Shown here: positions 1,086-50,428 of the stretch, piece by piece | Layout of the letters: every line of letters starts with the position of its first letter | Numbering within the stretch: position 1 is the stretch's first letter | NCBI GenBank assembly: GCA_050733195.1 | Contig: JBOHSH010000021.1 | Location: forward strand, 14,387 to 78,386 | Reading direction: 5' to 3' | Origin: Gemmatimonadales bacterium | Lineage (GTDB): Bacteria > Gemmatimonadota > Gemmatimonadetes > Gemmatimonadales > GWC2-71-9 | DNA: 64,000 nt | Notes under the pieces: generated by a model | The model's database searches: none | What the model was told of the DNA's origin: nothing | Seen by the model: only the letters and a program-made list of their open reading frames with translations | Program-made: the position numbers and the translations under genes

Positions 1086-1210
1086 TAGACGGGCGGACGG
1101 GGAGACGGACAGACGGGCGGAAGGCACAGACGGCCGGACGGCCAGAAAACAAAGACGGCCAGGGATTGGCTCTCCCTGGCCGTCCGGCCGTCCGGCCGAC
1201 GGGCCGTCTA
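1086..1210. repeat. Tandem GACGG-type units (octamer GACGGCCG) arranged as inverted arms around a hairpin
   Basis: Left arm 1086-1144 holds degenerate GACGG units ending in 2 x GACGGCCG. Right arm 1177-1208 holds 4 x CGGCCGTC, the reverse complement. The repeat fills the spacer between the sigma gene stop and the Lon-N gene start. Confidence 0.85.
1141..1184 (-). terminator. Intrinsic terminator of the sigma-factor gene
   Basis: Perfect 12-bp stem GACGGCCAGGGA (1154-1165) / TCCCTGGCCGTC (1173-1184) with a 7-nt loop. On the minus strand it is followed by TTTGTTTTCTGG. It sits about 24 nt after the stop at 1208. Confidence 0.7.
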
Positions 1211-5128: not shown

Positions 5129-5257
5129 GGGTTCTGGGTTCTGAGTACTGGGTTCTGGGTTGTCGATTTCGGACATCGAACTCAGAACTCAGAACTCAGA
5201 ACTCAGAACTCAGAACTCAGAACTCAGAACTCAGTGCATGGCCAGAACCCAGAACTC
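5129..5257. repeat. Heptamer array with inverted arms: 5 x GGGTTCT-type, a 15-nt palindromic core, 8 perfect AACTCAG, then AGAACCC AGAACTC
   Basis: Read directly from the sequence. It fills the entire convergent spacer between the reductase stop (5128) and the dacB stop (5256-5258). Confidence 0.95.
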
Positions 5258-20588: not shown

Positions 20589-20962
20589 TCGGCGTGGGTA
20601 TCGATCTCGTCGAAGTCGCCGACGCCGATCGGCTGCTGGTGCGCTGGGGCGAGCGCCTGCTGGCCAAGGTGCTCACCTCGGACGAACGGGAGTACGTCCT
20701 GAGCCACGAGTTTCCCGAGAAGCACATCGCGGTGCGGCTCGCCGCAAAGGAGGCTGTCTACAAGGCCCTCGCCCCGCTGCCCGATGCCCGCGGCGTCGGC
20801 TGGAGGGATATCGAGGTCGTCCGGGCCCTCGACGGGCATCCCTCCGTCCGCCTCCACGGTCTCGCCGCCCGGATCCAGCAGCGGGACGGCCCGTTTCGGA
20901 TCTCGCTGTCCCTCTCGCATACCTCGCAGACGGCGGGGGCAGTTGCCGTCATCGAGCGTTGA
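20579..20962 (+). CDS. acpS: Holo-[acyl-carrier-protein] synthase
   Basis: MALIGVGIDLVEVADADRL...ERE...FAAKEAVYKAL...ISLSHT...A.AVAVIE pattern. The ATG at 20579 overlaps the upstream gene by 10 nt. Confidence 0.85.
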   Translation: MALIGVGIDLVEVADADRLLVRWGERLLAKVLTSDEREYVLSHEFPEKHIAVRLAAKEAVYKALAPLPDARGVGWRDIEVVRALDGHPSVRLHGLAARIQQRDGPFRISLSLSHTSQTAGAVAVIER

Positions 20963-20984
20963 CGCTGACGGTTGACGGTTGGCG
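20958..20984. repeat. GTTGACG heptamer array (4 units, one of them 6 nt)
   Basis: GTTGACG CTGACG GTTGACG GTTGGCG. The acpS stop codon TGA is inside the first unit. Confidence 0.85.
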
Positions 20985-21044
20985 GGGGCTGGCGGGGTTC
21001 GTGCAGCAGGCGCTCTAGGAATTCCGACGATTCGACTCTAGTTT

Positions 21045-24097: not shown

Positions 24098-24139
24098 GGG
24101 TTCTGGGTTCTGAGTTCTGGGTTCTGGGTTCTGGGTTTT
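24098..24139. repeat. GGGTTCT heptamer array (6 units)
   Basis: GGGTTCT GGGTTCT GAGTTCT GGGTTCT GGGTTCT GGGTTTT, starting 3 nt from the lgt start codon. There is no complementary arm at this locus. Confidence 0.95.
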
Positions 24140-24163
24140 GTGAGCCGGTAAGCTAACCTGCGG

Positions 24164-24203
24164 GCTCCCTAGCTCCCTAGCTCCCTAGCTCCCTAGCTCC
24201 CTA
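24164..24203. repeat. GCTCCCTA octamer array (5 units)
   Basis: Five perfect units. On the minus strand they read TAGGGAGC. The array straddles the tsaD stop (24193-24195) and encodes its last residues, GLGS. Confidence 0.95.
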
Positions 24204-25230
24204 ACCCCGGGAGCGGCCCGCTGTCGAACGGCTCCAGGTCCCAGCCGCTGCGCTCCCCGCGGGCCAGGCGCCAGGCGCCGGCGGCGGCGATCATGGCGGC
24301 GTTATCGGTGTTGAGCCGGGGTGACGCGACTGCCACCCGGGCCACCCCGTCGAGTCGGGCCCGGAGCGCCTCCGCGAGCGCGCGGTTGCAGGCGACCCCG
24401 CCGCCGATCATGGCGATGGGCCGGCCGAGCTCCTCGGTGGCGCGGGCCGTTTTCTCGACGAGGACTTCGAGGGCGGCGTCCTGGAAGTCGCGGGCGAGGT
24501 CGGCGCGATCGCGCTCGATGTCGTCGCTGGCGCGCACCGCTCGAAGCACCGCGGTCTTGAGACCGCTGAAGGAGAAGGCCCAGCGATCGTCGCCGTGGCC
24601 ATCCAGAGTCCTGAGCATGGAGCGGGGGAACCGGAAGCGCCCGGGCCTGCCCAGCGCCGCGAGGCGCTCGAGGGCGGCGCCCGCGGGGTAGTCGAGCCCG
24701 AGCAGCGTCCCGACCTTGTCGAATGCCTCACCCGCCGCGTCGTCGAGCGTCTGGCCGAGGAGGCGATAGCGGCCCCATTCCGGGACATCGAGCAGCAGGG
24801 TATGGCCGCCGCTCACGAGGAGCGCGACGAACGGCGGGACGAGCCCGTCGTCCTCGAGGGTCGGCGCGAAGAGATGGCCCTCGAGGTGATGCACGCCGAC
24901 GAGCGGCTTGTCGAGGGCGAAGGCGAGACCCTTGGCGTACATGAGGCCGACCAGGAGCGCGCCCACGAGGCCCGGCCCCGCGGTGACGGCGAACCCGGTG
25001 AGGTCATCGAGCGCGATCCCGGCTTCCGCGAGGGCGCGATCGGCCACCGGGCCGATGGTCCGGAGGTGCTCGCGGCTCGCGAGCTCCGGCACCACGCCGC
25101 CGAACACCCGATGGACGTCCTGGGACAGGATCACGAGGCTCTCGAGAACGGGTCGGCCGTCCTCGATGCTGAGGACGGCCGCCGAAGTCTCGTCGCAGCT
25201 CGTTTCGATTCCGAGAACGCGCTCAGCCAC
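24193..25230 (-). CDS. tsaD: tRNA N6-adenosine threonylcarbamoyltransferase
   Basis: VLGIETSCDETSAAV..., HH.EGH, LLVSGGHT and GGGVACN are Kae1/TsaD signature blocks. Confidence 0.9.
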   Translation of the reverse strand: MAERVLGIETSCDETSAAVLSIEDGRPVLESLVILSQDVHRVFGGVVPELASREHLRTIGPVADRALAEAGIALDDLTGFAVTAGPGLVGALLVGLMYAKGLAFALDKPLVGVHHLEGHLFAPTLEDDGLVPPFVALLVSGGHTLLLDVPEWGRYRLLGQTLDDAAGEAFDKVGTLLGLDYPAGAALERLAALGRPGRFRFPRSMLRTLDGHGDDRWAFSFSGLKTAVLRAVRASDDIERDRADLARDFQDAALEVLVEKTARATEELGRPIAMIGGGVACNRALAEALRARLDGVARVAVASPRLNTDNAAMIAAAGAWRLARGERSGWDLEPFDSGPLPGLGS

Positions 25231-26486: not shown

Positions 26487-27247
26487 GGACGGTCTGCCGC
26501 GATCAGGAGGTTCACCCGGCCGTCTTTCGGGGCGAGGATCCCGGCCGACGGCTGCTGGTCGAGCACCGTGCCGGCCGCACCGCCTTCGCGGGTCCGCACG
26601 GTCCCCACGCGGAGTCCGAGCGCCTCGAGCCGCTCGCGCGCCTCGTCGTGCGGCAGGCCCACGAGGTTGGGCACGCGGATGTCCGACGGGCCGCGGCTCA
26701 CGGCGACTTCCACGGTGGTGCCGGGGGGCCGCATCGAACCGGAACCGGGTCTCGTGCTCACGATCACGCCGGGCACCGCGCCGCTCGGAATCGTGTCGAT
26801 GCTCCCGACGCGGAACCCGGCCGCTTCGATGATCTGGCGTCCCTGCTCGAGCTCGAATTGCGCGACGTCCGGCACCGGCACGGTCGCCGGACCGGCGCTG
26901 GGGACGAGGTGCACGGTGCCGGTGCGGGGGAGCACCATCTCGGACGGCGGATCCTGCCAGACGACGCGCCCCGGAGGAATGACCGGATCGGGCACCGGCT
27001 CTTCGACGCGCACCTTGAATCCCTGTTCCTCGAGCTCCTGCTGCGCGGCGCTGATCGGAAGGCCGAGCACCCGGGCGACGGCCCGATCCCCGACGATCAG
27101 CGGAGCGGGGTAGGCCCACACCGTGATGAGATATCCGATCACGATGGCGCCGACCAGGATGACGACCGCGCTCAGGCGCTGTCGCCCGCGCACGGTTCGG
27201 GGCCACCCGCCGCGTCGCCTTCGGCGCGAGGAGCGGGGTTCGGACAT
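26483..27247 (-). CDS. PASTA-domain membrane protein (short Arg-rich tail, 1 TM, 3 PASTA repeats), no kinase domain
   Basis: The C-terminal 254 aa of ORF 26483..28129 from the ATG at 27247 (1-nt overlap with the rsmB stop). TM helix LSAVVILVGAIVIGYLITVWAY followed by three ~65-aa repeats with PASTA-like spacing. Confidence 0.75.
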   Translation of the reverse strand: MSEPRSSRRRRRGGWPRTVRGRQRLSAVVILVGAIVIGYLITVWAYPAPLIVGDRAVARVLGLPISAAQQELEEQGFKVRVEEPVPDPVIPPGRVVWQDPPSEMVLPRTGTVHLVPSAGPATVPVPDVAQFELEQGRQIIEAAGFRVGSIDTIPSGAVPGVIVSTRPGSGSMRPPGTTVEVAVSRGPSDIRVPNLVGLPHDEARERLEALGLRVGTVRTREGGAAGTVLDQQPSAGILAPKDGRVNLLIAADRP

Positions 27248-28572
27248 CAGGCGACTCGGCGAAGTCGCGCCGCGTAGGCGCCGTCCATGCCGTGCCGCTG
27301 GGGCAGGATCATCAGGTCTCCGGCAGCGGTGAGGAGGTCGGCGGGAGCGCTCGCGCCCGGCTCGCGCCGGAACCGTGTGTCGGCGGCGAGAAATGCGTCG
27401 ACCTGGGTCTCGTTCTCTTCCGGCTCGAGCGAACAGGTGGAGAAAAGTAACCAGCCGCCCGGGCGCACGATCTCGGCCTGCGCGCGGAGGAATCGCGACG
27501 CCTGCTCGGTGAGGCCCTCGAGCGCGTCGGCGGACACCCGCCAGCGCGCATCGGGATTCCGGGCCAGCGCGCCCGTACCGAGGCACGGGACGTCGAGCAG
27601 CACCGCGCCGACCGGACGGACCGGGGGCCGGTCGGCCGAGGCGAGCAGCGAGAAGGCGGGACCGCTCGCGGCGCGGCCGAGATTGCCGACGAGCCTGCGA
27701 ATGCGGTCGCGTCGGCGGTCCGCGGCCACGACCGTCCGGCCGCTCCTGGAGAGCCCGACGGTCTTGCCCCCGGGAGCGGCGCAGGCGTCGAAGACGGTGG
27801 CGGCATCGGTCTCGAAGAACCGGAGGACGAGGGCCTGCGCGGGATCCTGGACCTGGAAGGCGCCGGAGGCGAATCCCGGCAGCTCGCGAGGCCTGGACGT
27901 CTCGACCACGATGCCGGCGTCGTAGGGCGCTCGCGCCCACCGAACGCCGGCGCGGTCGAGCGCGGCCGTAATGGCGTCGGCGTCCCACCGTGCGGGCTGC
28001 AGGACGAGCGACGGTCTCCTGTTGTTCCAGGAGAGCAGTCGCTCCGTCTCGTCCAGGCCGAAGCGGGCGACCCACCGTTCCACCAGCCATTCGGGATGCG
28101 ACGAGGCCGCGGCGAGGTCGGTCGCGCATGCCGGGGCCGCCTCGACCGTCTCCGCCGCTCCGCCCCGGAGGCTCCCGCGGTCTCCGGCGGTCGCCACTCG
28201 GCGGAGCACCGCGTTCACGAAGGCGCCGACCCGCGCTCCCGACACCCGGCGCGCGAGCTCCACGCTCGTCGAGACCGCGGCGTGGGGAGGCACCCGCTCG
28301 AGAAAGAGCAGCTGATAGGCGCCGAGGCGGAGGATGTCGAGCAGATCGGGGCGCACGCTGTCGAGCCCCAGGCTCACGTGCGGAGCGATGGCGCCGTCGA
28401 GCCGGGCCCGCTGCCGGAGCGCGCCCGCCGCAAGCTCGTGGGCGAGCCGTCGGTCCGCCTCCTCGGTGAGGGCTCCGAAGGCGCGATCGATCGCCAGGTC
28501 GAAGGGGACGCCGCGGTGCACGTCGTGGAGAATACGCCAGGCGGCGGTGCGGGCGGCGAGACCCGGAGACAT
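27247..28572 (-). CDS. rsmB: 16S rRNA (cytosine967-C5)-methyltransferase
   Basis: NusB-like N-terminal domain plus methyltransferase core DACAAPGGKT and LLFSTCSLEPEENE. Confidence 0.85.
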   Translation of the reverse strand: MSPGLAARTAAWRILHDVHRGVPFDLAIDRAFGALTEEADRRLAHELAAGALRQRARLDGAIAPHVSLGLDSVRPDLLDILRLGAYQLLFLERVPPHAAVSTSVELARRVSGARVGAFVNAVLRRVATAGDRGSLRGGAAETVEAAPACATDLAAASSHPEWLVERWVARFGLDETERLLSWNNRRPSLVLQPARWDADAITAALDRAGVRWARAPYDAGIVVETSRPRELPGFASGAFQVQDPAQALVLRFFETDAATVFDACAAPGGKTVGLSRSGRTVVAADRRRDRIRRLVGNLGRAASGPAFSLLASADRPPVRPVGAVLLDVPCLGTGALARNPDARWRVSADALEGLTEQASRFLRAQAEIVRPGGWLLFSTCSLEPEENETQVDAFLAADTRFRREPGASAPADLLTAAGDLMILPQRHGMDGAYAARLRRVA

Positions 28573-28575
28573 GAC

Positions 28576-28596
28576 GGTGACCGGTGGCCGGTTACC
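28576..28596. repeat. GGTNACC-type heptamer triplet (GGTGACC GGTGGCC GGTTACC)
   Basis: Occupies most of the 33-nt thiG-rsmB spacer. It is nearly self-complementary. Confidence 0.8.
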
Positions 28597-28605
28597 GGGG
28601 TGCGG

Positions 28606-32044: not shown

Positions 32045-33186
32045 GCGCAGTCTCGTCCGTGGTAGCGCCGGAGCCACCCGCGGCTCCAGCTATCAAACTC
32101 TCCCGAGAGAATCGTCGCCCGCGCGGCTCCGGCGAGCCGCAGCAGGAACCGCACGTTGTGCAGCGACACCAGCCGGAGCCCGAGAATCTCCTCGGCCACG
32201 AACAGGTGGCGCAGGTAGCCGCGGGAGAACCGCGCGCAGGTGGCGCAATCGCAGCCGTCCTCGAGCGGCCGTTCGTCCGTCCGGTGGGCGGCCTTGCGGA
32301 TGTTCACCCGCCCGTCGGCGGTCCAGGCGCTGCCGTGCCGGCCGTTCCGCGTGGCGGCGACGCAGTCGAAGAGGTCGACGCCTCTGGCGATTCCCTCGAG
32401 GAGATCCTCGGGGAAACCGACGCCCATAAGATAACGCGGGCGGTCGGCGGGGAGCCGCTCCGAGAGGAGGTCCAGCACGCCGTACATCACCGGCTTGGAT
32501 TCGCCGACCGAGAGGCCGCCGACGGCGACGCCGGTCCAGGGACCGCGCTCGAGCGTGCCCTCGAGCGAGCGAAGCCGGAGGTCGTGATGAATACCGCCCT
32601 GGATGATGGGCCAGAGGGTCTGACGTCCGTCCGTCTGCCCCCCTGCCAGGCCTTCATGCCGTGCCCGGCACCGGTCCAGCCAGCGCAGCGTCCGCTCCAT
32701 GCCCTCCTCCGCGAGCTCCCGCGAGGCCTGCCCGGGGACCACATGATCGAACGCCATCGCGATGTCGGCGCCGAGCGCCCACTGGATCTCCATCGAGCGC
32801 TCGGGCGTGAGCGTCCGGGCGGAGCCGTCGATGTGGCTGGTGAAGGAGACGCCTTCTTCCGCGACGGTCCGCAGGCCCGCGAGGGAGAAGACCTGAAAGC
32901 CACCGGAATCGGTGAGCATCGGACGCGACCAGCTGATGAACCGGTGGAGCCCGCCCATCGCGCCGATCGTCGCTTCGCCGGGACGCAGGTGCAGGTGATA
33001 GGTGTTGGCGAGCATGATGCGCGCCCCCGCCTCCTCCACCTCCGCGGGATGCAGGCCCCGCACGGCGCCGTACGTGCCCACCGGCATGAACGCCGGGGTC
33101 TCCACCGCGCCGTGCGGGAGCACGAGACGCCCGGCGCGGGCGCGCCCTGTGGTCCGCTCGATGGTCAGGTCGAACATGGCGCGCAA
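32041..33186 (-). CDS. tgt: Queuine tRNA-ribosyltransferase (tRNA-guanine transglycosylase)
   Basis: GRARAGRL.LPHG.VETPAFMPVGT, TDSGGFQVFSL, and the zinc motif CDCATC....YLRHL. Confidence 0.9.
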   Translation of the reverse strand: MRAMFDLTIERTTGRARAGRLVLPHGAVETPAFMPVGTYGAVRGLHPAEVEEAGARIMLANTYHLHLRPGEATIGAMGGLHRFISWSRPMLTDSGGFQVFSLAGLRTVAEEGVSFTSHIDGSARTLTPERSMEIQWALGADIAMAFDHVVPGQASRELAEEGMERTLRWLDRCRARHEGLAGGQTDGRQTLWPIIQGGIHHDLRLRSLEGTLERGPWTGVAVGGLSVGESKPVMYGVLDLLSERLPADRPRYLMGVGFPEDLLEGIARGVDLFDCVAATRNGRHGSAWTADGRVNIRKAAHRTDERPLEDGCDCATCARFSRGYLRHLFVAEEILGLRLVSLHNVRFLLRLAGAARATILSGEFDSWSRGWLRRYHGRDCA

Positions 33187-33201
33187 AGGTAACCCCCGGG
33201 C

Positions 33202-34251
33202 TCACCACACGAGCATCGCGTCGCCGTAGGAGTAGAAGCGATACCGATGCTCGGCGGCGTGGCGATAGGCCGCCATCGTCGTCTCGTAGCCCGCGAAGGC
33301 CGCGACCAGGAGGAGCAGGGTGGACCGAGGGAGATGGAAGTTCGAGAGCAGCCCGTCCACGGCCCGGAACCGGTATCCCGGCGCGATCATCAGCCGCGTC
33401 TCGCCGCCGCCGGCGGCGACAGTGCCGTCCTCGCGCGCCGCCGACTCGAGCGCCCGTACGACGGTCGTCCCGACGGCCCAGACCCGCGCCCCGCGGCTTC
33501 GGGCCTCCGAGACCGCGCCGGCGGCGGCGGGGGGAATCTCGTAGCGCTCGGGGTGCATCGGGTGGCGGCGGTAGTCCGCTTCCTCGACCGGCCGGAAGGT
33601 TCCCGGGCCGACCTCGAGCTCGAGCTTCGCGACGCGCACCCCCTTCGACAGGAGCTCCTCGAGAAGCGCTGTGGTGAAGTGCAGGCCCGCCGTGGGCGCC
33701 GCGACGCTGCTCTCCCGCTCGGCGAATACGGTCTGATACCGGTGGTCGTCCTCGTCCGCAGGCTCCCGCTCGATGTAGGGAGGAAGCGGGAGACGGCCGA
33801 AGCGGCGCATCGCCTCCTCCGCGGTGGCGCCGATTACCCGCACGCGGCGGTAGCCCTCGTCCAGCACCTCGAGGGTGAGGATCTCCACGCCCTCGCCGAT
33901 CGTGATCCGCCGGCCGGGGCGCAGCGCGCTGCCCGGGCGTCCCATCGCCACCCAGGTCTCGTCGGCCGCCGGGTGGATCAGCAGCACTTCGGCGGGGGCT
34001 CCCGAGGGGCGGTGGCCGAGGAGTCTCGCGTGCCGCACTCTGGAGCTGTTGAGGACGAGGAGGTCGCCGGGGGGAATGAGGTTGGGGAGATCGGAGAAGT
34101 GAAAGTCTTGCAGACTGGGTGTCTGAACGTTCTCCCGTCGAACCACGAGCAGCCTGCTGTCCCCGCGCCGCGCGGACGGCGTCTGGGCAATGAGCTCGGG
34201 CGGGAGGTGATAGTCGAAGTCGGCGGTCCGGAGCGCCGCCGGATCACGCAT
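33202..34251 (-). CDS. queA: S-adenosylmethionine:tRNA ribosyltransferase-isomerase
   Basis: Tail of ORF 33202..34665 from the ATG at 34251. [26 protein letters not shown]...[13 protein letters not shown], and the C-terminal SYGDAMLV. Confidence 0.9.
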
Positions 34252-35281
34252 CGAAGAGCGCGGCCTGCCCTTCTCCTCCGGGGCGCGCCGGCGGCGTGAT
34301 GCCGAAGCGCCGGTAGGCATTTGCGGTCGCGAGGCGGCCCCGCGGTGTCCGCTCGAGGAATCCCTGCTGGAGGAGATAGGGCTCGTACACTTCCTCCAGC
34401 GTGCCGGCGTCCTCGCCGACGGCGGCGGCGATCGTGTTGAGGCCGACCGGGCCTCCCGAGAACTTCTCGATGATGGTGGTGAGGATGCGCGCGTCCATGT
34501 CGTCGAGGCCGAACTCGTCGACGTTGAGCCGCGCCAGCGCTTCGGCCGCCACCGCGGCGGTGACCACGCCGTCGGCCTTGACCTGGGCGTAATCGCGCAC
34601 CCGGCGCAGGAGCCGGTTCGCGATCCTGGGCGTGCCGCGGCTGCGCCGGGCGAGCTCGGCGGCACCCTCCGTCTCGATCGCGACCCGGAGAATGCCCGCC
34701 GACCGGAGCACGATCTTCGCGAGATCCTCGGGCGGATAGAAGCTCAGCCGTTCCACGATCCCGAACCGCGCCCGCATCGGCGGCGTGAGCTGCCCGAACC
34801 GGGTGGTTGCGCCGACCAGGGTGAACCGCTCGAGCTGCATCGGAATGGTCTGGGCGTTGGGGCCGTCGCTGATCCGCACGTCGACCCGATAGTCCTCCAT
34901 GGCGGGATAGAGGAACTCCTCGAGCTGGGGCCGGAGCCGGTGGATCTCGTCGATGAACAGGACGTCGCCGTCGCCGAGGCCGGTGAGGAGGCCCACGAGA
35001 TCTCCCGGCCTCTCCAGCACCGGCCCCGAGGTCGTGCGGATCTGGACCCCCATCTCCTTCGCGAGGAGCAGGGCGAGCGTCGTCTTCCCGAGCCCCGGCG
35101 GTCCGAAGAAGAGGAGATGGTCGAGCGGCTCCCGCCGGCCCCGCGCCGCGTCGATGGCGATCTGGAGCGACGCCTTGAGCGGCGCCTGGCCCACGAATTC
35201 GTCGAGCCGCGAGGGCCGGAGGGCCGCATCGGCGCTGCCCTCCTCGGGAAGCGCGGCGGGGGTCGTGATCTCTAGAGGCAT
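34244..35281 (-). CDS. ruvB: Holliday junction branch migration helicase RuvB
   Basis: [12 protein letters not shown], Walker [16 protein letters not shown], Walker [27 protein letters not shown]. Confidence 0.95.
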
Positions 35282-35437
35282 GTTCTGAGTTCTGAGTTCT
35301 GAGTTCTGGGTTCTGGGTTCTGGGTTCCGGGTTCTGGGTTCTGGGTTTCGGTTCCAGGGACTCAGGTCCGCCCGTGCCGTGAAACCAGCTCTGGCACGAA
35401 GCCAGAACCCAGAACTCAGAACTCAGAACTCAGCACC
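35282..35437. repeat. Largest heptamer array: 11 x GTTCTGR-type arm, 44-nt core, 5 x CAGAACY arm
   Basis: Read directly from the sequence. The left arm is 35282-35358 and the right arm is 35403-35437, its reverse complement. The array occupies the whole spacer between the small Zn-ribbon gene stop and the ruvB start codon. The plus strand carries six GGG tracts with 4-nt loops. Confidence 0.95.
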
Positions 35438-35623
35438 TCATTTCGCACTTGCCTCCCACCTGACCGGTCGCGGTCCCGGGCGGATCACGTGCGGCGTGTG
35501 ACAGGACACACAGCGATCCTCCGCCCGGGTCGTGCCGGCGGCCACGAACTTCCGATTGGTCGAACCGCAGCTCGTGCACTGCCATTCGGCGGTCACGTGG
35601 GGAGCGGTAGAAGCGGCGATCAT
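35438..35623 (-). CDS. Small zinc-ribbon protein (CxxC-X18-CxxC), 61 aa
   Basis: MIAASTAPHVTAEWQCTSCGSTNRKFVAAGTTRAEDRCVSCHTPHVIRPG.... The ATG at 35623 forms an ATGA overlap with the ruvA stop, in frame with ORF 35438..36052. Confidence 0.5.
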   Translation of the reverse strand: MIAASTAPHVTAEWQCTSCGSTNRKFVAAGTTRAEDRCVSCHTPHVIRPGPRPVRWEASAK

Positions 35624-36225
35624 CCGCGTCCTCCGCGGGCATTCGTGAGGTGCTGAAGGGCACGACGCACGAGCGCGGGCGTGTCTTCCGCGGTGCCGTC
35701 TTCCAGCGCCGCGCGGACGGCGTCGTCCGCCGCGGCCGGTCCGTAGCCCAGGTTCCCGAGCGCGCGGACTGCGGCGTCGGCGGCACGGGCCGGGCGCGGC
35801 GAGGGGTGGGCGCGCTCGAGATCGGCGAACCGGTCGGACAGCTCCACGATCAGCTTCTCCGCCCGCTTCTTCCCGATGCCGCTTACCGTGGACAGCGCGG
35901 CGACGTCCTTGCCCGTGATGGCGCGCACCGTCCGTTCCGGGCCGAGGCCGGACAGGATCGCGAGGGCGAGACGGGGTCCCAGGCCGCTCGCGCCGAGGAG
36001 CCGCTGAAAGACGGTCCGCTCCTCCGCTCTGTCGAAGCCGTAGAGCGTCCACCCGTCTTCCCGGATGACCAGCTCGGTGTGCAGCGAGCAGCGGGCCCCG
36101 CGCGGCGGCAGGCGCTCGAACACGCCGAGGGGCACCGCGACCGCGTAGCCGACGCCGCCGTCGGTCTGGATGACCACCGAGTCTCCGTCGCGCTCGGTGA
36201 GCACGCCGGAGAGGCTCGCGATCAT
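35620..36225 (-). CDS. ruvA: Holliday junction DNA helicase subunit RuvA
   Basis: 201-aa tail of ORF 35620..36639. MIASLSGVLTE...VVIQTDGGVGYAV.VP, FGF...ER..F..LL...G.GP..AL.ILS, GIGKK.AE.L. ATGA overlap with the ruvC stop. Confidence 0.9.
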   Translation of the reverse strand: MIASLSGVLTERDGDSVVIQTDGGVGYAVAVPLGVFERLPPRGARCSLHTELVIREDGWTLYGFDRAEERTVFQRLLGASGLGPRLALAILSGLGPERTVRAITGKDVAALSTVSGIGKKRAEKLIVELSDRFADLERAHPSPRPARAADAAVRALGNLGYGPAAADDAVRAALEDGTAEDTPALVRRALQHLTNARGGRG

Positions 36226-36734
36226 CGCCGGAGTCCGCCCGACGCCGGCGCCGCCCGCACCGGGCGGAGGAGATGGGTCAGGGCCACCGCGACGGCGTCG
36301 GCCGCGTCGGCCGGCTTCGGGGGCGCCTGGAGCTGCAGCAGGCGCGCGACCATGTAGCCCACCTGGGCCTTGAGCGCGCCGCCGGCGCCGACGACCGTCT
36401 TCTTCACGACTCTCGGCGCGTACGAGGTCACCGGCACACCCGCTTCTTCCGCCGCGAGGAGGATGACGCCGCGCGCGTGGCCGAGCACGACGGTCGTCCG
36501 CACGTTGGGACCGTAGAAGATGTCCTCGACCGCGAGGGCGTCGGGGCGATGCCGCTCGAGCAGCTCGCCCATTCCCGCATGGATCTGCGCGAGCCGGCGC
36601 GGCAGCGTGTCCCCGGCGCGCATCCGTACCACGCCGCACTCGACGAGGCGCGCGGTCCGGCCCAGGCGTCCCGTCGACTCGATGATGCCGAAGCCGACCG
36701 TGGCGGTCCCGGGGTCGATGCCGAGGATCTTCAC
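36222..36734 (-). CDS. ruvC: Crossover junction endodeoxyribonuclease RuvC
   Basis: MKILGIDPGTATVGFGIIE..., AVEDIFYGPN, ADAADAVAVALTH. Confidence 0.9.
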   Translation of the reverse strand: MKILGIDPGTATVGFGIIESTGRLGRTARLVECGVVRMRAGDTLPRRLAQIHAGMGELLERHRPDALAVEDIFYGPNVRTTVVLGHARGVILLAAEEAGVPVTSYAPRVVKKTVVGAGGALKAQVGYMVARLLQLQAPPKPADAADAVAVALTHLLRPVRAAPASGGLRR

Positions 36735-36750
36735 GCGCAGCGGACCGGGC

Positions 36751-37500
36751 TCACGCCTCCGCCTCGGCCAGCGTCGCCGCGTCGATGTCGAAGTTCGAGA
36801 ACACCTTGGAGACGTCGTCGAGATCCTCCAGCGCCTCCACGAGCCGGAGAAGCCGCTCGGCGTCCTGCCCCTCCACCTTCACCGTGTTGCGGGGCACCAT
36901 CGCGAGCTCGGCCGAGACCGGAGTGTAGCCGCGGCTCCGGAGCGCGTCCCGCACCGCGTGGAAGTCCCCGGGAGCGGTGGTGACGACATACTGGTCGCCG
37001 TCCCGGACGAGGTCTTCCGCGCCGGCGTCGAGCGCGGCCTCCATCGTGGCGTCCTCGGCGTGCCGCGACACGTCAAGCGTGATCTGCCCCTTCCGGTCGA
37101 ACATCCACGCCACGGAGTTGGACGCGCCGAGATTGCCGTGCTGGCGGCTGAAGGCATGCCGCACCTCCGCGACGGTGCGGTTGGCGTTGTCCGTGGTCGC
37201 CTCGATGAAGATCGCGGCGCCGCCCGGGCCGTAGCCCTCGTAGGTCACCTCGTCGTAGCTCTCGCCCGCGAGCTCGCCGGTGCCCTTCTTGATGGCGCGG
37301 TCGATGTTGTCGTTGGGCATGTTGACCGCGCGCGCGGCATCCACGGCGGTGCGGAGCCGGGGATTCATCCCGGGGTCGCCGCCTCCCGCCTTCGCGGCGA
37401 CGGTGATCTCCCGGATGCACTTCGCCCAGACCGCCGAGCGCTTGTTGTCGGCCGCCGCCTTCTTGTGCTTGATCTGCTTCCACTTGCTGTGGCCGGCCAT
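36751..37500 (-). CDS. YebC/PmpR-family DNA-binding transcriptional regulator
   Basis: MAGHSKWKQIKHKKAAADNKRS..., GGGDPGMNPRLR, YEGYGPGGAAIFIE. Confidence 0.9.
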   Translation of the reverse strand: MAGHSKWKQIKHKKAAADNKRSAVWAKCIREITVAAKAGGGDPGMNPRLRTAVDAARAVNMPNDNIDRAIKKGTGELAGESYDEVTYEGYGPGGAAIFIEATTDNANRTVAEVRHAFSRQHGNLGASNSVAWMFDRKGQITLDVSRHAEDATMEAALDAGAEDLVRDGDQYVVTTAPGDFHAVRDALRSRGYTPVSAELAMVPRNTVKVEGQDAERLLRLVEALEDLDDVSKVFSNFDIDAATLAEAEA

Positions 37501-37548
37501 GGGGACTCCGGGCAGGGACGCTGCAGCAAATATAGGAGAGTTCCGCGT

Positions 37549-37926
37549 TCAGGACCCAGCGCTCTTCGCCGCCCTCGCCGCTTTCGCCAGCGCGTCGGCA
37601 GCCTCCGGACCCAGCGTCTCGCGGGCGGGGGCGACGAGTTGCTGCAGCACGATGGGGGCGACGCCGGGCTTGGGCTCCTCGAGGGCCGCGACCGCGGCGC
37701 CCAGAGCGCGGCGGAGCGGGGCGGGAAGCGTCAGGCTCGAGAGCCGCTGGCCCAGCGCCGCCGCCCGCCGGCGCGCGGCGCGATCCGGCTGGGGCGGCGC
37801 GAGGAGCAGGTCTTCGGCGAGCCGCACCACGAGCCAAAGGGCGAACGCGCCTTCCCGGCGGGGCCCGCGGGGAGCTTCCGTCATGAGCCGGATGAGCGTG
37901 ACGCCGGCGGGAGAGAAGCCGCTCAT
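37549..37926 (-). CDS. Hypothetical protein (helical, Ala/Arg/Leu-rich, 125 aa)
   Basis: ATGA overlap with the upstream glycosyltransferase stop and GC3-rich codon usage. I recognise no family. Confidence 0.5.
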   Translation of the reverse strand: MSGFSPAGVTLIRLMTEAPRGPRREGAFALWLVVRLAEDLLLAPPQPDRAARRRAAALGQRLSSLTLPAPLRRALGAAVAALEEPKPGVAPIVLQQLVAPARETLGPEAADALAKAARAAKSAGS

Positions 37927-38930
37927 CGGGGCAGCTTCCGAAGTGCTTCCAGCACTTCGTCCGGCATGAGGTCCTGGAGACAGCGATGATGACGGAGGGG
38001 GCAGACGGGGCCGCCGTGGGCGCTGCAGGGACGGCAGGGCAGCTCCTTTTCGACCACCGTGGCCTTGGCACCGTACGGGAAGAACCCGAAGCGCTCGACG
38101 GTCGGACCGAAGAGCGCCACGACCGGCGTGCCGACGGCCGTCGCGAGGTGCATCACGCCCGTGTCCCCCCCGATCAGGGCCCGCGACCGCTTGAGGATCG
38201 CCGCCGTGCCCAGGAGATCGAACGCGCCGGCCGCGTTGGCCGCGCGCTCACCCACCGCGCCGGCCACCTGCGCCCCGAGCAACAGGTCGTCCGGTCCGCC
38301 GACGACCACGAGGTCGTTGCCGGACGAGACCAGGTGCCGGGCGAGGGACGCCCAGTGGTGGACGGGCCAGCGCTTGGTGGCGTGCGCCGCTCCGGGCGCC
38401 AGTGCGATCAGCTGGCGCGCGGTGCCGATCCCCCGCTCGCGGAGGAAGTCATCGGCCTCCCGTACCGCCGCCGCCGAGACGAAGCATTCGGGCGGGCCAC
38501 CGTCCGGCTCGACGTCGAGGCCCCGTGCGGCGTCGAAGTAGCGCTCGGCCACCGGCCGGCGATCCCGGTACCAGTCCCGCTTCCACCGGATGAGCGCGGT
38601 GCGCGCGAGCCGGAGCTTGGGGTAGCCGGTCCACCGGCCCCCCATGCGCCAGCGCAGCCACCGGCTGCGCATGCTCCCGTGCAGATCCAGCCGGTGGGTA
38701 AACGGGCGGGCGCGGAGCTCGCGCGCGAGCCGCCCGATCGGGGTGCCCGGTTCCCAGGCGATCACCTCGGTGAGATGGGGATTCCTGGCCAGCAGCGGCG
38801 CGTACGCCGCCCGCGTGACGTACGTGATCGCGGCCGAGGGATGCCGCGCGCGCAGGGCGCGGACCAGCGGAGTCGTGAGCAGGATGTCGCCGATGGCGCT
38901 GAAGCGGACGAGCAGGATGCTGGGAGCCAC
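37923..38930 (-). CDS. Glycosyltransferase family 9 (heptosyltransferase-like)
   Basis: The C-terminal 335 aa of the 974-aa ORF: ILLVRFSAIGDILLTTPLVRAL, IALAPGAAHATKRWP, GGDTGVMHLATAVGTPVVALFGPT. GTG start at 38930. The rest of the ORF is antisense to msbA. Confidence 0.8.
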   Translation of the reverse strand: MAPSILLVRFSAIGDILLTTPLVRALRARHPSAAITYVTRAAYAPLLARNPHLTEVIAWEPGTPIGRLARELRARPFTHRLDLHGSMRSRWLRWRMGGRWTGYPKLRLARTALIRWKRDWYRDRRPVAERYFDAARGLDVEPDGGPPECFVSAAAVREADDFLRERGIGTARQLIALAPGAAHATKRWPVHHWASLARHLVSSGNDLVVVGGPDDLLLGAQVAGAVGERAANAAGAFDLLGTAAILKRSRALIGGDTGVMHLATAVGTPVVALFGPTVERFGFFPYGAKATVVEKELPCRPCSAHGGPVCPLRHHRCLQDLMPDEVLEALRKLPR

Positions 38931-40805: not shown

Positions 40806-41770
40806 AGGTGCTGCCGGTGCTGGTTGTCGCCTCCTTCGATGAAGCACACCACGCCCACGCGGCGCAGCGCTGCCGGGCCCTCGAGCGCCTGGGGTGCCGG
40901 GTGGAGGTGTTCGATCTGCTGAAGCGCCCCGGGCTCCTCGGGCGGCTGGCCGGCAACGATCTTCGCTCCCGGCTGCTCCGGAGCGTGGAGGCCGCCAACG
41001 CGCGCCTCGTGCTCGTCATCGGCGCTCCGGAGCTCGAGCCCGATCTGGTGACCACGCTGCGCAAGGAGACCCGGCTCCCCTGGGCCAACTGGTTTCCCGA
41101 CGACCTTCGGACGGCGTACGACGCCTGCCGGCGCGCCGCCGCCTACGATCACGTGTTCGTGACGGGATCCGACGTGGCGGCCCGCATGGAGACGGAGCTC
41201 GGCCGGCCGGTCGAAGTAGTGCCGTTCGCGGCCGACCCCTCCGTCTATCGCCCGCTCCGCTCCAAGGATCAGTACCGCGCCAATGTCGTCTTCGCCGGCT
41301 CCGCGACGCCGCGGCGGGAGCTGCTGCTCACGGGGCTCACCGGGTTCGGTCTGGCGCTCTGGGGGCCCGGCTGGCGGCGCACGACGCTCAAGGATTACTG
41401 CCGCGGCGAGGTGGCCAGCACCGACGATTACGTGCGGGCCTACGGGGGCGCGTCCGTGGCGGTGAACATCCACCACACGGCGGGCGGCAACGGGGCGGAC
41501 GAAGGCACGGTGAATCAGCGGCTCTTCGAGATCGCGGCCATCGGCGTGCCCCAGGTCGTGGACGCGCGGGCGGATCTGCCGGCGATGTTCCAGACCGGCG
41601 AGCAGGTGATGGTCTTCCAGGATGCGGCCGAGCTGCGCTCGCTCGTGGAGGCGGCGCTCCACGATCTCCCGTCGATGGAGCCGATCGCCGCCGCGGCGCG
41701 ACGGGAGGCGCTGGCGCGGCACACGTACATGCATCGGCTCACCCGGATCGTCGACTCGGTGACGCGTTGA
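40802..41770 (+). CDS. CgeB-like glycosyltransferase (DUF3880 / Glyco_trans_1_2 type), copy 1
   Basis: Tail of ORF 39965..41770 from the ATG at 40802 (ATGA overlap with the msbA stop). WANWFPDD, VVFAGS...R, VNIHH, NQRLFEIAAIG and a C-terminal HTY..R. The layout is shared with copy 2. Confidence 0.65.
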   Translation: MKVLPVLVVASFDEAHHAHAAQRCRALERLGCRVEVFDLLKRPGLLGRLAGNDLRSRLLRSVEAANARLVLVIGAPELEPDLVTTLRKETRLPWANWFPDDLRTAYDACRRAAAYDHVFVTGSDVAARMETELGRPVEVVPFAADPSVYRPLRSKDQYRANVVFAGSATPRRELLLTGLTGFGLALWGPGWRRTTLKDYCRGEVASTDDYVRAYGGASVAVNIHHTAGGNGADEGTVNQRLFEIAAIGVPQVVDARADLPAMFQTGEQVMVFQDAAELRSLVEAALHDLPSMEPIAAAARREALARHTYMHRLTRIVDSVTR

Positions 41771-41800
41771 CGGTTGACGGTTGAGAGTTGACGGTTGAAC
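41766..41800. repeat. GTTGACG heptamer array (5 units)
   Basis: GTTGACG GTTGACG GTTGAGA GTTGACG GTTGAAC. It essentially fills the 36-nt convergent spacer. The upstream gene's TGA lies in unit 1. Confidence 0.95.
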
Positions 41801-47810: not shown

Positions 47811-48635
47811 GTGTCAGCTCATCCCGCCCGGCTTCTCGACGACCGGCGACTCCTGGCCGGTCTCCTGCTCCTCGGACTCGTCATCCTGGCGGGCGTCTTC
47901 GCGCCCTGGCTCGCCCCCGCCGACCCCGTCGCGGGCGACCTCGCGGCCTACCTCAGAGGCCCGGACGCGGACCATCTGCTGGGTACGGATTCCCAGGGCC
48001 GCGACGTCCTGAGCCGGGTGCTCTACGGGGCACGCATCTCCCTCGTCGTGGGGCTCGTTTCCCAGAGCGTGACCCTGCTGCTCGGGGTGACCTTGGGCCT
48101 GCTCGCGGGGTGGTACGGCCGTTGGGTCGAGTCGGGGATCATGCGGTTCGCCGACGTCACGCTCGCCTTCCCGACGCTGCTCCTCTTGATCGCGATCGCG
48201 GCCGCGGTTCCACCCTCGCTCACGGTCACCTTTGCCGTCATCGGATTCGTGGGCTGGGCGGCGATGGCCCGGCTGGTGCGGGGCCAGGCGCTGGTCCTGC
48301 GGGAGACGGAATACGTCGCGGCGGCTCGGGCGCTCGGCGCCCCCGCGCGGCGCATCCTGCTTCGGCATCTCCTCCCCAACCTCCGCGCCCAGGTGATCAT
48401 CGCCGCCACGCTCGGCGTCGCGGCGGCCATGATGGCGGAGGCCGCGCTCTCGTTCGTCGGGCTGGGTGTGCAGCCGCCCACGCCGAGCTGGGGCAGCATG
48501 GTCGCGGAAGGCCGGGACCTCCTGCGGGTGGCCCCCTGGGTCTCGGTGGCGCCGGGTCTTGCGCTGGGCGCCGCGGTGCTCGGCCTCAACCTCGTGGGCG
48601 AAGGCCTCCGGGAGCGCTGGGAGCCGAGACGGTGA
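47811..48635 (+). CDS. Peptide/nickel ABC transporter permease, DppC/OppC-like (orphan)
   Basis: LLGTDSQGRDVLSRVLYGARISL, AFPTLLLLIAIAA, YVAAARALGA...LLRHLLPN. The GTG at 47811 is preferred; the track start at 47784 would overlap the divergent patatin gene. Confidence 0.8.
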   Translation: MSAHPARLLDDRRLLAGLLLLGLVILAGVFAPWLAPADPVAGDLAAYLRGPDADHLLGTDSQGRDVLSRVLYGARISLVVGLVSQSVTLLLGVTLGLLAGWYGRWVESGIMRFADVTLAFPTLLLLIAIAAAVPPSLTVTFAVIGFVGWAAMARLVRGQALVLRETEYVAAARALGAPARRILLRHLLPNLRAQVIIAATLGVAAAMMAEAALSFVGLGVQPPTPSWGSMVAEGRDLLRVAPWVSVAPGLALGAAVLGLNLVGEGLRERWEPRR

Positions 48636-48658
48636 CGGGTGACCGGTAACCGGTAACC
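48631..48658. repeat. GGTNACC-type heptamer array (GGTGACG GGTGACC GGTAACC GGTAACC)
   Basis: Read directly from the sequence. The permease TGA lies in unit 1, and TGA/TGA/TAA/TAA at 7-nt spacing cover all three frames. Confidence 0.9.
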
Positions 48659-48673
48659 GAAGGCCCCGGCCGT

Positions 48674-50325: not shown

Positions 50326-50413
50326 GTGCTGAGTTCTGAGTTCTGGGTTCGAGCGCCTGCCGGGGTGTCATTCGCCGATCATGGCCGGATCCCAGAACTC
50401 AGAACCCAGAACC
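50326..50413. repeat. Heptamer array with inverted arms (4 x GTKCTGR-type, 39-nt core, 3 x CAGAACY)
   Basis: Read directly from the sequence. It lies in the divergent tyrS/PBP1A spacer and ends 15 nt before the PBP1A ATG. Confidence 0.9.
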
Positions 50414-50428
50414 CCTTACTTTTCCCCC

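Follow-up and report, generated by a model that had tools for sequence, protein, structure and literature searches.

A heptamer inverted-pair array in the ruv operon of a Gemmatimonadales bacterium and its possible role as a tunable bridge between genes

Described heptamer repeats and their relation to the ruv spacer

Intergenic simple sequence repeats (SSRs) with heptamer units have been catalogued in Xanthomonas and Nostoc. According to the survey by Rehm et al. (2015, PMC4692102), GGGAATC repeats number 186 per Xanthomonas genome, are 89-93% intergenic, form 70-75 convergent inverted pairs, lie near the upstream ORF and vary among relatives, while the unit in Nostoc PCC 7120 is GGGGA(C/T)T. 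The same survey reports that GGGAATC repeats fold into G-quadruplexes (G4) in vitro and that the Xanthomonas repeats were tested with no function found, and it cites three tandemly repeated heptanucleotides in Calothrix PCC 7601. Other heptamer repeats are (GATAGRA)n in Chloroflexus (PMC6749651) and the TAACTGA direct repeats of Beggiatoaceae, cyanobacteria and Bacteroidetes, for which a role in translation was proposed (MacGregor 2015, PMC4679880). In H. influenzae, the (ATCTTTC)n hairpin of the hmw1A 5'-UTR is processed by RNase III, a function demonstrated experimentally (PMC12721329).

Here we analysed a 64-kb stretch of Gemmatimonadales DNA (the window), in which heptamer arrays occupy a 156-bp spacer upstream of ruvB. 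This ruv spacer is of the same kind as the intergenic heptamer repeats of Xanthomonas and Nostoc. The earlier note had not recognised it as a described repeat class, a view contradicted by the match to those SSRs in PMC4692102. Common traits are tandem heptamers (here of the form G3-4 plus N3-4 in only some of the units), a preference for intergenic DNA (~90% there) with under-representation between divergent genes, many convergent inverted pairs led by the G-rich arm, arrays adjoining the end of the upstream ORF, housekeeping neighbours (ruvA is among the genes marked there), and variation in length and sequence among close relatives. The differences lie in the phylum and the units, in the coexistence here of several unit families, octamers and units without G3, and in arrays that often fill the entire stop-to-start gap. 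Inter-arm compensatory change and insertion into an overlapping stop/start also distinguish the Gemmatimonadales arrays from the repeats in the accessible part of PMC4692102. In our own data, we found a 7-nt tandem unit far above chance, a strong non-coding bias, G-rich-first pairs and unit-number variation.

Cyanobacterial heptamer repeats, which reportedly owe the name STRR and their units to Mazel et al. 1990, are alike in being tandem and intergenic, with several heptamer families per genome and no assigned function, and differ in their AT-richer units and their phylum. The TAACTGA repeats (PMC4679880) are unlike ours in consisting of a single unit across phyla, nearly all direct (one indirect), without hairpin pairs. 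The hmw1A repeat (PMC12721329) is likewise a transcribed heptamer SSR before a gene, forming one arm of a long RNA hairpin with a variable number of units; in contrast to ours, it is part of a surface-adhesin contingency locus, a G-rich region without repeats supplies the other arm, and its polarity is opposite, with the pyrimidine-rich repeat arm first. Regarding contingency loci, the ruv spacer showed unit-number polymorphism, and the neighbours of the arrays were unrelated housekeeping genes.

Several other classes were considered and rejected. The REP/BIME/REPIN elements of proteobacteria are also intergenic, often within operons after stops, and form inverted-pair hairpins in genome-specific families. 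However, REP is an imperfect palindrome of 20-40 nt with a fixed sequence, mobilised by RAYT, whereas tandem units of 7-8 nt in variable number make up the arms here, without a conserved palindromic unit. A MITE was dismissed because pairwise alignment of five GTTCTGR elements confined similarity to the arrays, with unique cores and no clean target-site duplication, and a CRISPR array because the period is 7-8 nt and no spacers separate the units. On these points, and on the cores being unrelated, the earlier note proved right: when the five cores were compared by BLAST with the window and 200 loci, only the arrays matched, and the 44-nt ruv core matched only the ruv spacer of one near-identical assembly (L196). 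At the ruvB junction ATG stood on both sides, yet the flanks gave no clean duplication. A LexA box (GAAC-N4-GTTC) was likewise rejected on inspection, as the GAAC/GTTC units are direct repeats with 7-nt spacing next to unrelated genes. Rfam returned 0 hits in the window at the gathering threshold and, under permissive settings, only matches to generic miRNA hairpins, which scored 18-30 bits where 65-100 are required. A literature search with the unit string retrieved only T-cell-receptor primers. Finally, (GTTCTGR)4 occurred in more than 115 stretches from more than 20 phyla, and since those genomes are rich in other heptamer units too, we do not claim GTTCTGR as special.

Anatomy and predicted fold of the ruv spacer

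The ruv locus comprised the following features.

34244-35281, minus strand: ruvB, 345 aa, ATG at 35279-35281, assigned by its translation and RuvB Pfam domains
35282-35358, minus strand: array adjoining ruvB, the 3' arm on the mRNA, with 11 AGAACYC-type heptamers, C-rich in the sense strand and abutting the ruvB AUG
35359-35402, minus strand: unique 44-nt core with an inner stem, CGTGCC (35373-35378) / GGCACG (35393-35398)
35403-35437, minus strand: array adjoining the stop codon, the 5' arm on the mRNA, with 5 heptamers, G-rich in the sense strand, directly after the zinc-ribbon ORF stop
35438-35623, minus strand: 61-aa zinc-ribbon-like ORF (CxxC...CxxC) between ruvA and ruvB, stop codon TGA at 35438-35440
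35620-36225, minus strand: ruvA, with RuvA_N, HHH_5 and RuvA_C domains

A Gemmatimonadales MAG in the database encodes a RuvB of 100% identity to this one, whose N-terminus, MPLEITTP, aligned with orthologues. The zinc-ribbon ORF overlapped the end of ruvA by 4 nt, was called as a gene in L196 and was kept in most relatives; against Pfam it gave a sub-threshold match to Zn_ribbon_8 only. Gene callers run through such spacers, leaving RuvB annotated as N-terminally extended or fused proteins of 365-393 aa.

With ruvB starting at 35281 and the zinc-ribbon ORF ending at 35438, the array element fills the whole 156-bp spacer. The anatomy first read from the letters (11 GTTCTGR-type units, a 44-nt core and 5 CAGAACY units) was confirmed base for base. 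On the plus strand, the longer array reads three GTTCTGA, three GTTCTGG, one GTTCCGG, two GTTCTGG and the degenerate GTTTCGG and TTCCAGG, and the shorter one CAGAACC, three CAGAACT and CAGCACC, which in mRNA sense become GGTGCTG, three AGTTCTG and GGTTCTG. TRF scored the two arms at 9.4 and 5.7 copies.

The mRNA strand of the spacer folded at -92 kcal/mol, compared to -53.6 +/- 4.4 in 200 shuffles (z = -8.8), in agreement with the long hairpin ending at the ruvB start codon that had been proposed. In the predicted structure, a stem of ~38 bp loops out the entire insert, the 5' arm pairs perfectly with the 3'-arm units nearest the AUG, and the zinc-ribbon stop codon and the ruvB AUG face each other at the stem base, where one basal helix contains the U and G of the AUG together with G12 and A13 from the stop codon. 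The absence of a Shine-Dalgarno (SD) sequence before ruvB, which the earlier note had pointed out, turned out not to be a special feature: an SD-like 5-mer preceded only ~10-12% of the predicted genes, versus 8-9% in a control region, and genes of this genome ordinarily lack one. A promoter and terminator scan of 33000-38500 gave nothing on the coding strand; the single terminator call fell on the opposite strand and was no more than shuffled sequence would yield, and no U-run followed any stem. A tRNA/tmRNA scan found none.

Arrays in the window and in related genomes

The remaining arrays of the window are listed below, with the z-scores of their predicted folds.

1087-1208: inverted octamer pair, AGACGGGC x7 / GGCCGTCC x4 (TRF), in a co-directional spacer; z = -5.8
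5129-5257: inverted pair, GGGTTCT x4.7 / GAACTCA x8.1 plus CAGAACC CAGAACT, filling the convergent spacer between a trxB-like gene and PBP4; z = -6.1 (plus strand) and -4.9 (minus strand)
20958-20985, plus strand: weak array, GTTGACG x4.1, beginning at a stop codon; z = -0.6
24098-24203, minus strand: hybrid element, in sense octamer TAGGGAGC x5 and then heptamer AGAACCC x6; weak fold, z = -2.6
28575-28598, minus strand: weak array, CGGTGAC-type x3.4, filling the 33-nt spacer before rsmB; z = -2.3
41760-41798: single array, GTTGACG-type x5.4, in a 36-nt convergent spacer; z = -1.0
48630-48659: weak array, CGGTGAC/CGGTAAC x4.3, in a convergent spacer; z = 0.1
50326-50414: inverted pair, GTTCTGR / CAGAACY, in the divergent spacer between tyrS and PBP1A; z = -4.8 and -6.1
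53312-53344, plus strand: perfect octamer array, GACGGCCG x4.1, within an amidohydrolase CDS at about residues 228-239; z = -3.9
56826-56859, minus strand: single array, GAACCCA x4.9 on the plus strand and G-rich in sense, abutting the stop codon of an NtrC-like gene; no structure, z = +1.4

In the hybrid element, the octamer part includes the tsaD stop codon and the heptamer part stops 2 nt short of the lgt start. Only 3-4 imperfect copies make up each of the weak arrays at 20958, 28575 and 48630, and two elements have the degenerate terminal unit GGTGCTGAG in common. TRF recovered all eleven arrays previously claimed for the 64 kb, but their assignment to spacers failed for 53312-53344, which lies inside a gene whose Pfam Amidohydro_1 match covers residues 42-404. 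The idea of a window-wide repeat family was borne out, as was an abundance beyond that of chance sequence: a strict detector found 6 period-7 and 2 period-8 arrays, compared to 0.0 in 40 order-2 Markov simulations, and 15 of the 21 TRF arrays of period 7-8 fell in the non-coding 6.1% of the window (P = 2.5e-14), with arrays making up 13.6% of its non-coding bases. A second assembly, GCA_975101925.1, carried the same arrays, with an identical 5129-5257 element and, at 1087-1208, an equal unit count and one core SNP.

The class extends through related Gemmatimonadales contigs, which were pervaded by period 7/8 arrays with their own units in each lineage. The window and its relatives (792 kb) contained 72 period-7 and 30 period-8 arrays, versus 0 and 1 in the order-2 Markov control. 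Several unit families stand side by side in one genome, units differ freely among lineages, and arrays come and go at the same junctions. The layout of the class is a G-rich arm, a unique core and a C-rich arm. In co-directional spacers, sense G-rich arrays abutted the upstream stop (median 0 nt, 17/18) and sense C-rich arrays the next start (median 7 nt, 20/24). Divergent, promoter-bearing spacers held ~0.08 arrays per kb compared to ~1 per kb in tandem and convergent ones, i.e. ~12-fold fewer. In all close pairs (gap of up to 150 nt) with clear GC skew, the G-rich arm stood to the left of the C-rich one, and the opposite arrangement was limited to successive elements 250-400 nt apart and one pair of near-zero skew; GTTCTGR inverted pairs in other phyla were also G-rich-arm-first (9 vs 0). 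At rsmB, the arms were 214 nt apart with host coding sequence between them, and some arrays lay inside coding loops with the reading frame kept.

Orthologous junctions had been suggested as a check on the ruv spacer. In three close relatives (L001, L197 and L198; RuvB identity 87-90%) the spacer, core included, was absent, and the junction was a GTGA/cTGA stop/start overlap. The comparison shows a recent gain at a junction where the zinc-ribbon stop and the ruvB start formerly overlapped, and the ancestral GCTCTGAGCC there seems to resemble the unit TTCTGAG, which is suggestive. L196, from the second assembly, has a 100% identical RuvB, and a separate 15-kb stretch of that assembly matches the window at 99.74% identity, with 0 indels. 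The L196 ruv spacer was exactly 14 bp (2 units) shorter, in the 3' arm (35282-35358), with 2 further SNPs within the array, a difference between two short-read MAG assemblies. L006 and L007 had 2 and 5 units, respectively. Between near-identical strains, the length of the ruv spacer is thus shown to change, as judged from these assemblies, in whole units.

The ruvB-queA junction carried an equivalent hairpin in 10 relatives, where 90.7% of the cells were paired, compared to 80.2% in shuffles (0/500 reached this value), and structures shifted by 1-3 columns were only 27-52% paired. The alignment contained 31 double-change cells versus 12 in shuffles (0/500), repeated units within one sequence being non-independent observations in these counts. 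The pairing of this hairpin is shown to be kept in the relatives through apparent compensatory changes, which concerted evolution, by slippage and inter-arm copying, could also produce without selection. G.U and A.C mismatches were about equally common in the aligned hairpins, and therefore nothing favours selection on RNA over DNA.

Explanations for the arrays and their meaning

We give a probability of about 50% to the reading that the ruv spacer recently joined a class of hypervariable period-7/8 inverted-pair microsatellites that runs through the whole lineage, with a putative bridging or tuning role. Arrays would lengthen and shorten through replication slippage, and would persist mainly outside coding sequences because steps of 7 or 8 nt break no reading frame there. 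As to the function of the ruv spacer, we infer roles both in translational coupling and as a target of RNase III. On terminating at the zinc-ribbon stop, a ribosome would melt the stem base and free the adjacent ruvB AUG, for which reason the insert would be tolerated within the operon; despite the 156 nt inserted, coupling would thus be preserved in a genome where SD sequences are scarcely used. RNase III could plausibly act on the long perfect duplex, and the number of units could tune ruvB expression or mRNA stability, which is the way the heptamer hairpin of H. influenzae hmw1A operates. The hairpin cannot be the whole story, since 24098-24203 obeys the position and polarity rule with barely complementary arms and single arrays are unstructured.

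The arrays might instead be a neutral or selfish by-product of a lineage-specific replication or repair bias that makes period 7-8 arrays, which accumulate where harmless and have no cell function; the hairpin itself would template repair and slippage and so keep the arms complementary. We regard this as possible, though the less probable account. It fits the free differences in units among lineages and the several unit families per genome, the gain and loss at the same junctions beside unrelated housekeeping genes, the arrays in coding loops, the heptamer-rich genomes with many different units in many phyla, and the Xanthomonas tests that gave no function (PMC4692102). Against it, the ruvB-queA hairpin persists, paired, in lineages with ~77-81% RuvB identity to the window, and the strict polarity, the stop/start adjacency and the depletion from divergent spacers point to at least purifying constraints. 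An RNA element resembling REP/BIME, which as a 3'-end stabiliser or partial terminator/attenuator would set the expression of its neighbours (here ruvB below ruvA), seems unlikely. E. coli REP elements act in these ways, and the arrays do follow stop codons in co-directional and convergent spacers and form very stable stems; nevertheless, the lack of a U-tract and the empty terminator scan on the coding strand argue against it, and the stem runs on into the next start codon, more than 3' protection requires. Moreover, RuvA and RuvB act as a complex, and a terminator between their genes would therefore be unexpected.

It is improbable that the element acts at the DNA level, with G-rich arrays forming G4, or pairs forming cruciforms, that modulate transcription or replication. 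The six-tract G4 motif noticed earlier is present on the plus strand (35308-35345, canonical G3 tracts with 4-nt loops), another lies at 24167-24208 on the minus strand, the window holds 13 such motifs versus 7.2 +/- 2.1 expected, and GGGAATC repeats of like form make G4 in vitro (PMC4692102). However, for the ruv operon the plus strand serves as template, its mRNA contains a single GGG in the G-rich arm, and in inverted pairs a complementary arm stands opposite the G-rich one. Only 2 of ~20 window arrays follow the G4 rule: GGGTTCT units do, whereas GAGTTCT variants and most units of the relatives (GCGGAAT etc.) do not. As most of the latter have no G3 tract, G4 formation is not what unites the class. 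A non-autonomous MITE- or REPIN-like element whose transposase recognises the heptamer arms would account for one genome-specific unit at no fewer than 5 loci in 64 kb, for a ruv spacer that is new in its entirety and for the terminal unit shared by two elements, but we consider it very improbable given the unique cores of different lengths, the varying arm lengths, the missing target-site duplication at the ruvB junction, the arms that flank host CDS at rsmB and the mixed-period arms of 24098-24203. That the arrays are artefacts of a metagenome-assembled genome is hardly credible. Short-read assemblers handle tandem repeats poorly, and the two-unit difference could be such an error; yet two independent assemblies share the arrays, with equal unit counts at 1 kb and 5 kb, and dozens of unrelated metagenome contigs and isolate genomes show this architecture too. 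The arrays are therefore real, as the earlier note had taken them to be.

The question why bacteria over-produce heptamer repeats, and to what end, goes back to the surveys of 2007 and 2015. This lineage contributes a dated hairpin gain exactly at an overlapping stop/start junction, a whole-unit polymorphism between near-identical strains and the compensatory evolution of both arms at an orthologous junction, which make the ideas of a coupling bridge and of RNase III tuning directly testable. On a wider and quite unlikely view, inverted heptamer/octamer arrays go beyond slippage debris and are selected operon "junction bridges" or else the footprint of a dedicated repeat-building mechanism. 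A common rule may hold in the Gemmatimonadales studied here and in the Xanthomonas literature, with a G-rich sense arm running from the stop, a C-rich arm running to the next start, and a stem that may set the stop and start codons side by side. Alternatively, the G-first polarity and the 7-8 nt period would be the trace of that dedicated mechanism. If the arrays were bridges, they would preserve the coupling of translation or offer RNase III a place to cut, with the number of units as a quickly mutating control over ruvB and other housekeeping genes.

Anatomy and folding of the ruvB spacer

The earlier note had divided the 156-nt gap between the small ORF and ruvB into 11 units, a 44-nt core and 5 units, and this anatomy matched exactly. 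In window coordinates, the features are:

ruvA, end at 35620, minus strand
35623-35438, minus strand, 61-aa CxxC...CxxC ORF, 4-nt overlap with the ruvA end
35403-35437, plus-strand order, five CAGAACY heptamers
35359-35402, plus-strand order, 44-nt core in which CGTGCC and GGCACG make a small stem
35282-35358, plus-strand order, eleven GTTCTGR-type heptamers, the final two degenerate
ruvB, start at 35281, minus strand

Read along the mRNA, the stop codon is followed by the G-rich arm of 5 units, the core, the C-rich arm of 11 units and finally the AUG. The window has a G+C content of 71% and derives from a Gemmatimonadales MAG, as shown by a database RuvB of such a MAG that matches its own at 100% identity. 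Most Gemmatimonadales relatives have this zinc-ribbon-like ORF (61-64 aa) at the same place, with translational coupling to both ruvA and ruvB (2097-2282 in L196, from a second assembly, and 2810-3004 in L198, from a close relative); against Pfam, no family exceeded the threshold (Zn_ribbon_8, 19 bits, cut-off 34). RuvB proteins of 365-393 aa result from gene callers sometimes fusing this ORF to ruvB or reading through.

The mRNA strand of the spacer folded at -92 kcal/mol, whereas shuffled controls gave -53.6 ± 4.4 (z = -8.8). The 5′ arm pairs without mismatch with the AUG-proximal units of the 3′ arm, and the GAG and GGG variants follow one another in mirror order in the two arms. The predicted helix is very stable. 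Its basal segment takes in two bases of the upstream UGA (G and A) and two of the ruvB AUG (U and G), which places both codons together at the foot of the stem. The inverted pairs at 1 kb, 5 kb and 50 kb also folded far better than shuffles (z of -4.8 to -6.1), single arrays in the window showed no excess folding (z near 0), and the 24098-24203 element, in which an octamer and a heptamer array show little complementarity, gave z = -2.6.

Several other readings of the spacer were considered. No Rfam family matched, the scan found neither a promoter nor an intrinsic terminator, and a CRISPR array was rejected, as was a MITE or REP element, the cores being unique and the likeness limited to the arrays. 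The proposed G-quadruplex motif is present, but it belongs to the strand that serves as template for the operon, and the mRNA G-rich arm holds one GGG; since most units in relatives are without G3 tracts, G4 formation is not what the arrays have in common. The missing ruvB Shine-Dalgarno sequence mentioned in the earlier note turned out to be ordinary here: an SD-like 5-mer precedes just 10-12% of predicted genes versus 8-9% for the control region.

Abundance, polarity and placement of the arrays

Using a strict detector, we found six period-7 and two period-8 arrays in the window and none in 40 order-2 Markov simulations. When TRF arrays of period 7-8 with at least 3 copies were counted (n = 21), 15 fell within the non-coding 6.1% of the window (P = 2.5e-14), and arrays made up 13.6% of its non-coding bases. 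In 792 kb of sequence, comprising the window and 80 related metagenome contigs, we counted 72 arrays of period 7, 30 of period 8, four of period 6 and two of period 10, against no period-7 and one period-8 array in the control for 792 kb. Array abundance exceeds chance. All eleven arrays that the earlier note listed exist, although three are weak and another (53312-53344, plus strand), a perfect octamer array of 4.1 GACGGCCG copies, occupies no spacer and lies inside an amidohydrolase coding sequence (Pfam match over residues 42-404).

Polarity and placement were strict. Close inverted pairs, with arms no more than 150 nt apart and a clear GC skew, had the G-rich arm of a given strand first on that strand without exception, those from other phyla among them; for the GTTCTGR unit elsewhere, this order was found 9 times versus 0. 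In co-directional spacers, sense-G-rich arrays adjoined the upstream stop codon (median 0 nt, 17/18) and sense-C-rich arrays the next start codon (median 7 nt, 20/24), and divergent spacers had arrays about 12-fold more rarely per kb. Arrays reach right to the coding boundary. Their neighbours are ordinary housekeeping genes (lgt, tsaD, trxB-like, PBP4, tyrS, PBP1A and an NtrC-like regulator). The tsaD stop codon TAG lies within the first unit of an octamer array of five TAGGGAGC copies (24164-24203, minus strand), and in relatives too the stop codon opens the first heptamer (TAA-CGCGGAA, TAG-TGCGGAA).

Arrays were also seen inside genes. An rsmB-like methyltransferase gene of relatives carries an in-frame inverted heptamer pair, CGGGATG / CGCATCC, with 214 nt between the arms (L021 17188-17220 and 17435-17465; also L015, L016, L022 and L023). 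These arrays encode the linker peptide SRDAGCGMRDAGE, their arms covary across lineages (CGGGGAG / CCGCTCC in L015), and in the window orthologue (27247-28572, minus strand) this site holds an insertion that is not a repeat. Likewise, a QueA loop is encoded by a heptamer array (L021 11320-11350; L016 4601-4635; L012 4963-4993; L033 10877-10913; window queA, 33202-34251, minus strand), its short form GKRETGN corresponding to 3.4 copies of ACGGGAA. In some lineages this loop is expanded by 7 aa, GMRDAGSGMRGSGGK, that is, 21 nt or three units, so that slippage by multiples of three units makes protein length variants.

History of the ruv junctions

In most relatives, the stop codon of the zinc-ribbon ORF touches the ruvB start codon or overlaps it (0-20 nt), and in the closest ones (L001, L197 and L198; RuvB identity 87-90%) a GTGA/cTGA overlap is present; these comparisons show that the ruvB spacer is a recent gain at an overlapping, translationally coupled stop/start junction. 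In further lineages, array-type spacers built from other units arose at this junction (GTGAGCG / CCGCTTA in L008, octamers in L013, and L003), and L010 has one between ruvA and the zinc-ribbon ORF. In L016 (~3150-3280), the ORF/ruvB junction holds a long non-array inverted repeat instead (CGGCAGTGCCGGTAAAC ... GTTTACGGGCACTGCCG, flanks GCCGCGACT / GCCGCGAGT), another kind of hairpin insert at the same place. A second recurrent array site of the ruv operon is the spacer between a 126-aa gene and a yebC-like gene, with octamer arrays of the AGACGCAC/TAGACGCA type in L006, L007, L015, L021 (7039-7072), L023 and L039 and none in the window (37501-37548).

The assembly GCA_975101925.1 represents a closely related strain (99.74% identity over 15 kb, 40 SNPs, 0 indels). 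Its 1-kb and 5-kb arrays have the same unit counts as those of the window, and its ruvB spacer has exactly two units fewer, plus two SNPs within the array. Unit number thus changes by whole units between near-identical strains, a difference that is the signature of slippage, and the shared arrays together with the two-unit difference argue against an assembly artefact. In the same assembly, a C-to-A difference at window position 1546 (1692 in stretch L200) creates a stop codon in a sigma-70-family gene (1208-2119, minus strand), and gene calling then yields two ORFs, Sigma70_r2/r3 and r4. The difference reflects either a pseudogene peculiar to that strain or an error in sequencing.

At the sister junction downstream of ruvB, ruvB and queA overlap by 8 nt in the window (34244-34251) and are also overlapping in other relatives, and in 14 relatives (among L006-L040, e.g. 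L021 11018-11114) an inverted heptamer pair spans the junction, from the stop of ruvB to the start of queA. The units vary by lineage (GCGGAAT, GCGGAGT, GCGGATT, GCGGAAC), with the opposite arm altered to match. When ten of the 14 spacers were aligned and compared to 500 shuffles, 90.7% of cells were paired versus 80.2% (0/500 reached this value) and 31 versus 12 cells had changed on both sides (0/500); units inside one array are non-independent, and arm-to-arm concerted evolution could look like selection. Structures shifted by 1-3 columns paired at just 27-52%. The alignment indicates that pairing has been kept long-term at this junction. According to the main rival explanation, the arrays would be neutral by-products and concerted evolution would keep their arms complementary.

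Known heptamer repeats and a candidate mechanism

The earlier note did not recognise the spacer as belonging to a described class, but heptamer SSRs of this class are already published for Xanthomonas and Nostoc. According to Rehm et al. 2015 (PMC4692102), Xanthomonas genomes carry ~185 GGGAATC arrays each, 89-93% of them intergenic, with 70-75 convergent inverted pairs. The mean distance to the upstream ORF is 28 nt. The arrays occur beside housekeeping genes and rarely between divergent genes, differ between Xcc and Xac and form G4 in vitro, and a function was sought and none found. The paper also describes GGGGA(C/T)T repeats in Nostoc, a further cyanobacterial case (Calothrix) and a 2007 survey of prokaryotic SSRs that noted a general heptamer excess and a polymerase-slippage hypothesis. 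Other examples are TAACTGA directly upstream of start codons in Beggiatoaceae (PMC4679880) and (GATAGRA)n in Chloroflexus (PMC6749651), and a 2025 survey described prokaryotic phyla enriched in 6-9 bp units (PMC12699852). Our literature search found no report on Gemmatimonadota or on the GTTCTGR unit.

More than 20 phyla are represented among the more than 115 stretches that contain (GTTCTGR)4 (L081-L195; e.g. L152, L174, L150, L126 and L161), mostly as single arrays, and many of the 8-kb (GTTCTGR)n stretches hold several more heptamer arrays with unrelated units. Among the arrays of the cyanobacterial stretch L152 are some of the TAACTGA type. Genomes rich in heptamer arrays are dispersed over the bacterial tree, and the cross-phylum spread of GTTCTGR does not show the unit to be special. 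The ruvB spacer is a real, well-supported case of an already known, functionally unsolved kind of repeat.

In the most likely mechanism, replication slippage would create and alter the arrays, which may persist where steps of 7-8 nt leave reading frames intact; within operons, looping-out of the insert by the stem would make them tolerable. The G-first polarity might, speculatively, avoid an exposed C-rich, Rho-loading stretch or reflect the need for a G-poor leader ahead of start codons. A ribosome halting at the UGA would melt the stem base and expose the AUG opposite, which would preserve coupling in an SD-poor genome. In H. influenzae, the (ATCTTTC)n repeat of hmw1A supplies one side of a 5′-UTR hairpin; RNase III cleavage of this hairpin leads to higher expression, and the hairpin is required for repeat-number change (PMC12721329). 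At ruvB, the predicted duplex is perfect over more than 30 bp and likewise a probable RNase III substrate, and unit number could thereby tune ruvB output.
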